64,000 nucleotides of DNA from Bacilli bacterium (GTDB taxonomy: Bacteria; Bacillota_I; Bacilli_A; ML615J-28; CAG-698). Location of the stretch: positions 149,202 through 213,201 of the forward strand of contig JAVBLL010000008.1 in NCBI GenBank assembly GCA_031553555.1. Reading direction: 5' to 3'. Positions 53,201 through 56,200 of the stretch are shown piece after piece. Numbering within the stretch: position 1 is the stretch's first letter; each line of letters begins with the position of its first letter. A program made the position numbers.

Positions 53201-56200
53201 ACTGTTTTTAAATCTTTATTTATTTTTAAAGTAGTTCCAATCAAAGTAGTATTTTTTCCAAGCACTAACTCAAAGTAACTAAGGTAAGCACCTAATTGAC
53301 CCATTATATCAAAATCACTTTGAACTTTATCACCAACTGTATTTTTCAAGTATTCTTGATATTGTGCCTTTAATAAAGATGAAGAAAAATCACTTAAAAT
53401 AATATTACTAGTATATGCCTTATCAGCCATTAGTAATCCATTACTATTATTAAAACGAACATTGCCAATTATTGTTGACTGGGAACTTACTGAACTAATC
53501 AATTTTGATATTCCAGAACCAAGAAAATTCAAATTACCTTGAATTTTCAAATTATGTCCATCTAAATCTAAAGTAGCATTGTTCACAAAGTTAACTGTTT
53601 CACCGGAATCAATTACTATATCATTTGCTAACTTTATATATAAATTATCATAACTTGATGATTGGGATGCAAATCTTTGAAGTTCTGCCAATGAATACAC
53701 ATAAAACAATTCTTCTTCCAAACTCATTTGCTGAGCGTAAATATTAATCGTCAAACCAAAATCTTGGCTCAATAAATATTCAGTAATACCAATATGATAT
53801 TCAAATCTCAACTCAACATCTAGTTCTTCAAAAGCATGCATAGTATATTTTTTGTTAGCAATTGGAGTTGATGAAGATGCCACCAATGAAACTAAGTCAC
53901 CAGCATACTCATCATTTAAATACACATCAATCCCAGGAATTAATGTTGAAGTTGGATTAGTTAGCTGAAATTGTATAAAATAAAAAATTGTATAAGATGA
54001 ATCATTAGTAATTGTAAAATTAACTATATGAATATCCCCAGCATTTGTAAAACTCATTTTTTCCAAATCTGCTCCATCTTCATATAAAGGATAAGTTGCT
54101 ATAATTGCAAAATCCCCTGTCTTAATTTTACCAATTCCATCAATTGATTTTATATGTGCTATCCAGCCATAAGTCAAAGTACATAACAAAAGAAGAGAGA
54201 TAATAACCATACTCATTGAACCTATTAACTTAGATTTCAAAAATTTTTTTGTTTTCATCTTGACCTCCTGTATATTTATCATATTAATGATTAAGTATTT
54301 ACTATATAAATTTTCACTTTTTAAAAAAAATAAGCCAGTTCATACAAAATTGTATGTAACTGGCTGTCTATTAAAGACCCTCTAGTTTTGCGTCATCGCC
54401 TTACAACGATTTTGCCCTTTTATACTTATTAAACTATAATTATTATAACATCAAAAGCATAAAAAGTCAAGTTTATTGCTGAAAAAATGACTTTTCCACA
54501 TATTAACATTATTTTTAAGTTTTTTTTAATGTAATAATTGAATTAGAGATTTGTTAATTTTTAATTGATTTGATAATTTCCCCTCTTCTTCATGTCCAGG
54601 ATAAATCGTATAATCAATTTTTTGTTTAAATATATTTTGTAAACTATTACGCAATTCATATGAATTCCCGCTAAACAAATCAGTACGTCCTATATCACCA
54701 TTAAAAAGTGTATCTCCAGTAAACAAAACATTATTATATTCATAACACACTGAGCAGTTGGAATGCCCAGGGGTATATAAAACTCTAATGATGTCGTTGT
54801 CAAAAGGAATATGAAAATCATTATTTACAAAGATGAATTTATCAATTGCAATATTAATACTAAGTTTCATTCTTAGTAACGATGCCATATTATAACTATT
54901 ATTGAATAGTTTATTATAACAATTTTTATGACAATATATAGGACATTGATAAAATTCATAAACTTCTTGTAAATCAACAATATGGTCAGCATGACCATGC
55001 GTCAATAAAATGCCAAGACATTTTTTTGATGTCTCATTTTGAATATTTTTAAGTTGTATGCAAGGATCTATAATAAGAAAACCATTATTATTTTCAATAA
55101 TATAACAATTAGTTTCTATGTACCTTGATGACATTTTAATGATATTAGCCATAATAAACCTCGATATTAACTACAATTTACAATAATTACTTCTCCACCA
55201 ATTTTAACAATCTTATCCCAAGACAAATTGATTTGATCGTTTCCAAAGAAACCACTTAATCCTTTATTTCTACTAATTGTAATAGAATTTATCTTGCCAG
55301 TAGCAAAATCGATTTCTAGATCCGTCAAACGGCCCAGTTTGCTACCATCAACTACATTAATCACATCACGCGTTTGCAATTCTTTTAATAACATATTATT
55401 CACCCATAACATTTTATGATGCAATTAGCAAAAATATGTAAAATTTTATGATTTAAAGGGAATTTGGGGAAGTGAAGAATATAAACGATCTAAACCATAA
55501 TTCAAACGGTCTTCTTCACTAAAAATATGTATTATGATATCTCCTAAATCTATTAAAGTCCAGGTTTTACCATTTTCTATACCCCTTATATGATATTCTT
55601 GTCTTAAATAATTAATTGCCGCTTGCATCTGTCTTTCACTTAAAGCGGTTGAAACAATGACATAATCACAAAATAAATGACTTTTGCTAGCATCATATAT
55701 ACTTATGTTGTGGACTAGATTGCGGTTGATAGTTTCTAAGATATTATTCAAATAACTATTTTCTGTATTATAAAACTTTTTATAATATTGAAATGCTTCC
55801 ATTGTTAAAGTATGTATAGGTGCATTTCTAGTTGTCAATTTCTTAATATTCTCTTCAAGAATAATATATATTGCTTTTTGATAATTTGATTGGGCAATGT
55901 TTCTCACTTTTTCAAAATTTCTACCAACTCTACTATCTTCAATATAATCACTTAAAAATATAACCTCTTCAAGCAGGCTCATATTAGCGCGTCCTGTTGT
56001 ATGATACTCAATTGCATTTAGAATTTCTTCATCTTCAATACCCAGATCATTCATAATGGCATATTTCCCAAGTAGTGCATGTGTGACTTTCTCATTATTT
56101 AAATAATATTCATAAGATAGATTATTATTTAAAACAATTTCTTCAAATTCCTCTTTATTCATAAACTTTGCATAGTCATGAAGTAAACCGGCAATACGAA

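Follow-up and report, generated by a model that had tools for sequence, protein, structure and literature searches.

Class I riboswitches for the second messenger cyclic di-GMP (c-di-GMP), first described as GEMM RNAs, offer close precedents for the elements reported here. The 2007 GEMM paper described P2 hairpins that lack the tetraloop receptor and carry extra bulged A residues, counted 78 of 322 instances in which the 5′ side of a terminator overlaps the 3′ side of P2, inferred that the ligand raises expression and described tandem arrangements (PMC1950547). Bc2 of Bacillus thuringiensis, which precedes an adhesin gene, was shown experimentally to be an ON switch (PMC4933901). For Bc3-5, the folding prediction made by its authors has the terminator blocked once the C of the binding site, P1 and a portion of the last helix are engaged, and reporter assays revealed a c-di-GMP-dependent ON response, more digital than that of single copies and more stringent, in the control of surface proteins (PMC4759541). 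A survey of c-di-GMP-I arrangements found 347 doublets and 12 triplets (PMC9481103). The 64,000-nucleotide (nt) stretch of contig JAVBLL010000008.1 from a Bacilli bacterium (assembly GCA_031553555.1, positions 149,202 to 213,201 of the forward strand; hereafter the window) holds three further members of this published type, numbered here copies 1, 2 and 3, and an earlier reading of copy 3 made from the sequence alone (the sequence-only reading) had re-derived the published model correctly.

The whole window was scanned with Rfam at gathering thresholds, and c-di-GMP-I (RF01051, GEMM-I; gathering score 35 bits) gave three matches on the minus strand, each covering the model in full (positions 1-87 of 87). 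We consider it very probable that they are canonical class I c-di-GMP riboswitches with a terminator-overlap ON platform, copies 1 and 2 standing in tandem. The segment flagged as copy 3, 54418-54323 (-), had been given with exact coordinates on the minus strand, its first letter being the A just 5′ of GGGCAAA and its last the final U of the terminator U-tract. The parts of the complete copy-3 element are as follows.

54442..54470, minus strand: promoter (TTGACT and TATAAT, 17-nt spacer with TG; 11/12 matches)
54352..54426, minus strand: c-di-GMP-I aptamer (RF01051, 57.0 bits)
within 54352..54426, minus strand: P1 hairpin, GC / AAA / AUCGUU-GUAA-GGCGAU / GAC / GC
within 54352..54426, minus strand: short P2 hairpin, AACU-AGA-GGGUC-UUUAAUA-GAC-AG-CC-AGUU
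54416, 54389 and 54356, minus strand: equivalents of the ligand-contact nucleotides G20, A47 and C92, respectively (alignment to the Rfam consensus)
54333..54365, minus strand: intrinsic terminator hairpin, AGCCAGUU-A-CAUACA-AUUU-UGUAUG-AACUGGCU (RNAfold)
54323..54332, minus strand: terminator U-tract, UAUUUUUUUU (sequence)

The copies share with Vc2 of Vibrio cholerae, the RF01051 archetype, a P1 made of a 2-bp stem, a 3-nt internal loop, a 6-bp stem and a GNRA loop (GC/AAA/AUCGUY-G(A/U)AA-GGCGAU/GAC/GC in all three, then AAA), and with the RF01051 class the AAA linker, the P2 hairpin, the contact nucleotides and the position in the 5′ untranslated region (UTR), scoring 22-29 bits above gathering. 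They depart from Vc2 in P2, which in Vc2 is long and bears the receptor (P3 in the crystal-structure papers), whereas in the window it is very short, with a 7-nt loop, an A-N-A bulge near the base and no 11-nt tetraloop receptor, as in the receptor-less sub-type of 2007 (PMC1950547). As in Bc2, which lies 5′ of the collagen adhesion protein gene cap, a class I aptamer is followed by an intrinsic terminator, the ligand promoting read-through in Bc2 (PMC4933901); organism and gene are different, and Bc2 has been validated experimentally whereas the window copies are known from sequence. The likeness to Bc3-5, of the cspABCDE operon of B. thuringiensis CT-43, lies in complete riboswitches placed in series, each with its own terminator, before an operon for surface proteins, putative ones in the window (PMC4759541). 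Bc3-5 has three in series, whereas the window has two and a third before the neighbouring operon, and the proteins regulated in the window carry leucine-rich repeats (LRRs) or are possibly TasA-like, unlike the unrelated cell-wall-anchored Csp proteins of Bc3-5. Finally, the short P2 hairpin and the overall length are those of c-di-GMP-I-GGC (RF03167), from which the copies differ by an A in place of the defining G, while the fold is also that of GEMM-Ib, often ON-type and tandem (PMC9481103), from which they differ by G20, an A in GEMM-Ib.

The expression platform is built directly on the aptamer. The copy-3 terminator hairpin folds at -18.0 kcal/mol (z = -5.5; RNAfold), with 0/200 shuffles as stable, and the 8 nt at its 5′ end (54365-54358) double as the 3′ strand of aptamer P2. 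The segment AGCCAGUU serves both folds, its CC pairing with GG and its AGUU with AACU in P2, and the next conserved C, the equivalent of C92 (54356), opens the upper stem of the terminator. Since the 5′ arm of the terminator is the P2 3′ strand and the next C opens the upper stem, aptamer and terminator folds are mutually exclusive. In the full leaders of copies 3, 1 and 2 the minimum-energy folds include the terminator, with energies of -29.1, -26.4 and -26.0 kcal/mol, respectively. When the aptamer is enforced, the best values in the same order are -20.2, -19.1 and -17.7 kcal/mol; without ligand, the terminator fold is 7-9 kcal/mol more stable than any aptamer-keeping fold. In the aptamer-enforced fold the upper hairpin of the terminator can coexist, but it then stands 7-8 nt from the U-tract. 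With the terminator fold as the minimum-energy one, the default state is therefore termination, and stabilization of the aptamer should allow read-through. We also considered whether the 5′ flank pairs with the 3′ tail to close the element (GUAU/AUAC for copy 3); such a helix has only 2-4 bp, is AT-rich and was given no weight as evidence.

The proposal of the sequence-only reading that aptamer folding should prevent the terminator, making this an ON switch, is supported by this fold competition, by the recurrence of the overlap in relatives and by the published GEMM model. Copy 3 would thus be a complete receptor-less, short-P2 class I c-di-GMP riboswitch acting as a transcriptional ON switch. 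A near-consensus sigma-70-type promoter would start transcription about 9 nt 5′ of the aptamer, which would fold first, and the next 25 nt would let the terminator hairpin form, its 8-nt 5′ arm AGCCAGUU being taken from P2 and its upper stem starting with the C expected to pair with a guanine of c-di-GMP. Without ligand the terminator would win and RNA polymerase would stop at the U-tract; binding of c-di-GMP would lock P2 together with that C and block the lower stem of the terminator, and the polymerase would read through into the three genes downstream, p1003, p883 and p272. Both c-di-GMP binding and the in-vivo direction of the switch are, for these copies, what we infer.

The surroundings of the aptamers follow the same layout. 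Promoter, aptamer, terminator, ribosome-binding site (RBS) and ATG succeed one another on the same strand, in the 5′ UTR, for all copies. The two best sigma-70-type promoter matches in 47300-54700 (7.4 kb) lie directly 5′ of the aptamers, both with an extended -10 TG, that of copy 3 ranking second among 55 promoter-like sites; the predicted transcription starts are ~9-13 nt 5′ of the aptamers (~54435 for copy 3, roughly 9 nt). The ATG codons, each after an RBS, are at 54258 for the copy-3 unit and at 47393 for the tandem unit, the parts of which are the following.

47640..47668, minus strand: tandem-unit promoter (TTGACA and TATAAT, 17-nt spacer with TG; 12/12, best in the region)
47546..47620, minus strand: copy-1 c-di-GMP-I aptamer with GAAA tetraloop (RF01051, 63.8 bits)
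47523..47559, minus strand: copy-1 terminator (hairpin 47559-47529, U-tract to 47523; -15.1 kcal/mol, z = -3.7)
47431..47505, minus strand: copy-2 c-di-GMP-I aptamer (RF01051, 61.5 bits; core the same as in copy 1)
47405..47443, minus strand: copy-2 terminator (hairpin 47443-47414, A, U8 at 47412-47405; -14.0 kcal/mol, z = -3.5)

In copy 1 the 5′ arm of the terminator, AGCCAGU, again overlaps aptamer P2, and an RBS, GGAGGG (47397-47402), lies directly 3′ of the copy-2 terminator. Copies 1 and 2 were described at the outset as near-identical recent duplicates, and they are a recent 115-nt duplication: the tandem repeat has 2.0 copies at 93% identity, and only 2 substitutions and 3 gap columns separate them. 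They stand 115 nt apart with one promoter before and one RBS after, each with its own hairpin and U-tract, and would act as two complete ON riboswitches in series ahead of operon B, the four-gene unit downstream. Read-through into this operon should need ligand on both tandem aptamers, and the predicted effect is greater steepness and stringency of the response. Inspection of the sequence from the p272 stop codon (47772) to the promoter of the tandem (47669-47771, -) shows no hairpin followed by a U-tract, so that transcripts released by copy 3 may continue into copies 1 and 2; if they do, three checkpoints would lie on one ~20-kb unit.

Relatives were collected with a pattern that left the P1-stem strands, the lower P2 stem and all downstream sequence free. 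At least 120 loci in the genome collection matched it, across many phyla and sharing the 5′-UTR position, and among the matches listed there were 135 unique aptamers, in which each P1-stem position shows 3-8 pair types and 87-100% canonical pairing. A formal covariation count was made on the 36 short-P2 relatives with the A-N-A bulge architecture of the window. Paired cells amount to 97.1% in these, against 83.1% in shuffles, of which 0/500 reach the observed value; cells changed on both sides number 96 as opposed to 30.7 in shuffles, pairing with partners slid by 1-3 columns falls to 19-42%, and 6/6 P1-stem pairs change on both sides. The condition that would have refuted the sequence-only reading, homologues that lack covariation, therefore does not hold, all six P1 pairs covarying.

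The overlap between terminator and aptamer is recurrent as well, and it covaries with the aptamer strand. When it was scored as an 8-mer complementary to GCC and the next 5 nt, then a U-rich tract, 30/134 listed relatives had an overlapping terminator. When the downstream sequence was dinucleotide-shuffled, the count was 3.9 ± 1.9, and at most 10 in 200 shuffles. Swapping the downstream regions between loci lowered it to 16.6 ± 3.0 (maximum 25), and the 3′ arm of the terminator therefore tracks the aptamer strand; arm pairs such as AGCCGGUUACC/GGUAAUUGGCU and AGCCUUACUACC/GGUUGUAAGGCU illustrate it. An RNAfold-based test of overlap was positive in 35/135 listed relatives. Among metagenomes, a scan with the lineage-specific P1-stem pattern GGCAAAATCGTNGNAAGGCGATGACGCAAAACTA returned no match and one keyed on the P2 hairpin returned 16 loci; by one or the other of two criteria, the terminator overlaps the aptamer in 13/14 unique close relatives from metagenomes, with upper stems unrelated in sequence.

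From GGCAAA to the U-tract, copy 3 has 10 substitutions with respect to copy 1, two additional nt (AA) in the 3′ arm of the terminator and differences in the U-tract, which makes about 12-16 positions, in line with the ~15 reported. The 59-nt aptamer core accounts for 6 substitutions with respect to copies 1 and 2, and all 17 base pairs are kept. Two fall in stems, a C to U in the innermost P1 pair, which turns C-G into U·G (AUCGUC/GGCGAU to AUCGUU/GGCGAU, as had been noted), and a U to C in P2, which turns G·U into G-C; the other four are the N of the GNRA loop (GAAA to GUAA, likewise recognized), the middle base of the A-N-A bulge and two bases of the 7-nt P2 loop. Six randomly placed substitutions would spare all 17 pairs with P = 0.024, and would also spare the conserved single-stranded nucleotides with P = 0.0013. 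The same sites vary freely in the 135 listed relatives (GUAA 28 and GAAA 25, bulge AAA 11 and AGA 6, GAU 72 and GAC 63). In the terminator, copy 1 has GCAUA/UAUGU as its upper stem where copy 3 has CAUACA/UGUAUG, and the AA insertion extends the lower stem of copy 3 to 8 bp. The description of GCCAGUU as both the 3′ strand of the aptamer and the first strand of the terminator holds, these being the P2 3′ strand and the terminator 5′ arm. The rebuilt terminator stem stands too, while the 3′ arm quoted for it, GUAUG-A-AACUGGC, does not: the arm has 12 nt, GUAUG-AACUGGC, and A 54357, which stays unpaired, therefore bulges on one side only and is not part of an A/A mismatch.

Several observations weigh against an ON switch for c-di-GMP, and they are best considered together with the explanations that they would favor. 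One concerns the ligand. In Vc2 the ligand is contacted by G20, A47 and C92, and a C44-G83 pair joins the helices (PMC4744006); nucleotides equivalent to all of these are present in all three copies (in copy 3, C44 corresponds to C 54392 and G83 to G 54364 in the bulged AG, and likewise in copies 1 and 2). Given the G20, A47 and C92 equivalents, c-di-GMP is the expected ligand, rather than cyclic AMP-GMP (c-AMP-GMP) or the ligand of the GGC variants. Rfam clan competition by E-value, nonetheless, keeps RF03167 (c-di-GMP-I-GGC) over RF01051 for all three copies, its E-values being the better ones, and three close metagenomic relatives bear an A at the G20 position, as would suit a specificity variant that senses c-AMP-GMP (GEMM-Ib) or the GGC-class ligand with the same ON architecture. 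To our knowledge the ligand of the latter class has not been identified. Membership of the GGC class was rejected, as the RF03167 scores (58.9, 57.7 and 55.3 bits; 47430-47619 and 54351-54425, -) all lie below its gathering score of 59 and the defining G is absent, the three copies reading GACGC-A-AA, with the canonical A47, against GACGC-G-AA in the RF03167 consensus; we take this consensus to define "GGC". The short P2 common to the model and the window copies probably explains the good fit. GEMM-Ib was rejected as well: variants for c-AMP-GMP have an A instead of G at position 20 (PMC9481103), whereas all three copies have a G there, (A/G)GGCAAA. A change of specificity is accordingly very unlikely. 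Two studies of 2015, by Kellenberger and by Nelson, reportedly used the same A20 criterion. The three relatives (L129, ~3545-3619, +; L135, 1176-1250, +; L136, 1279-1353, -) read AGCAAA for GGCAAA, the change known to shift GEMM-I toward c-AMP-GMP, and Rfam still assigns them to c-di-GMP-I.

Other results concern the folds and the terminators. In nascent RNA ending just after P2, the minimum-energy fold of copies 1 and 2 (-13.4 and -14.0 kcal/mol) differs from the aptamer fold (-10.6 kcal/mol), on energies that take no account of tertiary or ligand contacts, and a simple consensus terminator scan of 47300-54700, under a stated rule that makes no provision for bulges, found 0 sites; the stems here are bulged and escape such a scan, for which reason the terminator calls rest on RNAfold. 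In another explanation, the hairpins would be constitutive terminators or attenuators, or parts of an OFF switch, with an aptamer that has decayed or lost control and a ligand that does not raise expression. The margin of 7-9 kcal/mol in favor of the terminator fold would suit this, as would the lack of any other visible terminator from the upstream genes to the aptamers, which would leave the hairpins to stop read-through from upstream as well; class I switches of the OFF type are known, and homologous cyclic-dinucleotide aptamers are described as acting as ON or OFF switches (PMC9262584). However, the conserved aptamer positions and the 17 pairs are intact in all three copies, the diverged one included, the overlap recurs and covaries in many lineages, and an OFF switch would call for an anti-terminator in competition with the aptamer, whereas here the terminator arm is itself an aptamer strand; the same overlap was proposed for Bc3-5, whose ON behavior was seen in reporter assays (PMC4759541). 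We regard this explanation as unlikely, if less so than a change of ligand. As to the copies themselves, both stem changes of copy 3 are one-sided, if compatible with pairing, and the window holds no double compensatory change. With no pair changed on both sides, a comparison restricted to the three copies speaks modestly for purifying selection, and not for strict covariation; a non-functional dispersed repeat, in which shared ancestry and too few substitutions had preserved the structure, would fit the mere 6 aptamer substitutions and the modest P = 0.024. The covariance-model matches are strong, though (57.0-63.8 bits for RF01051), a near-consensus promoter precedes and a gene follows, the layout from promoter to gene occurs three times, and homologues in many phyla occupy the same 5′-UTR position and covary. 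A dispersed repeat is thereby effectively refuted and retains hardly any probability, and the view of copy 3 as a functional structured RNA rather than a junk repeat is upheld.

Taking the elements as ON switches for c-di-GMP, the three copies probably activate two neighboring operons of large surface proteins in response to high c-di-GMP. The operons span ~20 kb (34062-54258), ending before hrcA-grpE-dnaK, and comprise the following open reading frames (ORFs).

47772..54258, minus strand: operon A (copy 3), p1003, p883 and p272 (ORFs, weak LRR matches, N-terminal motifs)
54264-54269, minus strand: operon A RBS, AGGAGG (sequence)
54258-51247, minus strand: p1003, operon A
51250-48599, minus strand: p883, operon A
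48590-47772, minus strand: p272, operon A
34062..47393, minus strand: operon B (tandem copies 1 and 2), p233, p2884, p1084 and p228 (ORFs, N-terminal motifs)
47393-46692, minus strand: p233, operon B
46673-38019, minus strand: p2884, internalin-like LRR, operon B
38007-34753, minus strand: p1084, operon B
34748-34062, minus strand: p228, operon B

Matches in Pfam and NCBIfam are confined to the large proteins, where they are weak and of LRR or internalin-like type; the three small proteins (p233, p272 and p228) have none, and a sequence-profile search of the regulated proteins against the PDB gave nothing significant. Exact matches to the proteins came only from Logan contigs of SRR23967709 and SRR23967707. 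In all seven, a Lys-rich N-terminus leads into a hydrophobic helix and then a T-(Y/F)-(A/G)-W-(F/I)-like motif, which together resemble SipW-type (TasA/CalY) signal peptides, and the three small proteins align with each other. Where the riboswitch sub-type is followed by an ORF, a transmembrane helix and then [AG]W[YFIMV] were seen in 14/83 of these first downstream ORFs, compared with 43/1153 background ORFs of the same loci. The positive loci (L010, from Anaeroplasma bactoclasticum, L052, L081, L084, L095, L099, L100, L124, L125/L131, L130/L132/L137 and L134) belong to Anaeroplasma-, Mollicutes- and Bacilli-like genomes and rumen-type contigs, and their first ORFs, of 230-313 amino acids (aa), combine a transmembrane helix with AW(Y/F)xxNK. 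This looks like a conserved pairing of the short-P2 terminator-overlap riboswitch with the motif protein family. The downstream gene of L129 (276 aa, ...TIAWFAMNDN), one of the loci with A at the G20 position, is of the same N-terminal motif family. A weak homologue of p1003 lies directly downstream of a riboswitch in an Anaeroplasma metagenome-assembled genome (MAG; locus L004), and p233 likewise has a weak homologue in another Anaeroplasma MAG locus (L052). These homologues, along with a GC content of 28%, suggest an Anaeroplasma-like source for the window.

For p233, a word-indexed search returned only p233 itself, and full HMMER a family of 7 cluster representatives. Its AlphaFold model (mean predicted local distance difference test, pLDDT, 71) shows an N-terminal helix and a beta-sandwich. 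An hhalign comparison of the 8-sequence p233-family profile with a 25-sequence TasA profile gave a probability of 66% and E = 5.5e-5 over only 84 N-terminal columns, and Foldseek, with that model of mean pLDDT 71 as query, placed the TasA fiber 8aur_A at rank 3 (E = 9e-3, probability 0.93, template modeling score, TM, 0.32). This weak similarity suggests a possible relationship of the small proteins to TasA (TasA/CalY, PF12389). Neither a SipW-type signal peptidase nor GGDEF/EAL genes turned up in the ~30/50 window ORFs scanned.

Elsewhere in the window, a tetrahydrofolate (THF) riboswitch (RF01831, 23583-23671, -; 44.7 bits, gathering score 36) lies directly 5′ of an ORF (22991-23548, -) for the S component of an energy-coupling factor (ECF) transporter (Pfam ECF-ribofla_trS / ECF_trnsprt). 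A THF riboswitch before a folate transporter is the usual pairing. The context genes encode RelA/SpoT (4598-6784), a GH5 cellulase (14455-15696), a Big_2 protein (11396-14332) and a Listeria-Bacteroides-repeat protein (20456-22906), and with a GC content of 26-32% (about 28%) they fit a fiber-associated gut or rumen organism of the Bacillota/Mollicutes type.

The class, the terminator-overlap ON design and tandem copies have been known since 2007-2008 and validated experimentally, and the riboswitch itself therefore matters little. Its use is in annotation, since ~20 kb of otherwise unannotatable genes (34062-54258) of an uncultured low-GC bacterium are thereby marked as probably c-di-GMP-induced, which implies a sessile or adhesive role. 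It also points to an annotation hazard, as canonical aptamers with a short P2 score near threshold on the c-di-GMP-I-GGC model and may be mis-annotated. The more consequential reading, which we put forward only tentatively, is that the three ON riboswitches are the c-di-GMP input to a previously undescribed surface-fiber or adhesin apparatus of uncultured, low-GC, Anaeroplasma-like gut and rumen bacteria. High c-di-GMP turning on adhesins and matrix proteins fits the general biology of the messenger. If this were true, small beta-sandwich proteins, remote relatives of the biofilm fiber protein TasA, would make up the apparatus together with giant LRR proteins of up to 2884 aa, all sharing one N-terminal motif, and the pairing of riboswitch and protein would be a conserved regulon that includes A. 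bactoclasticum, Mollicutes and Bacilli MAGs and rumen-type contigs.

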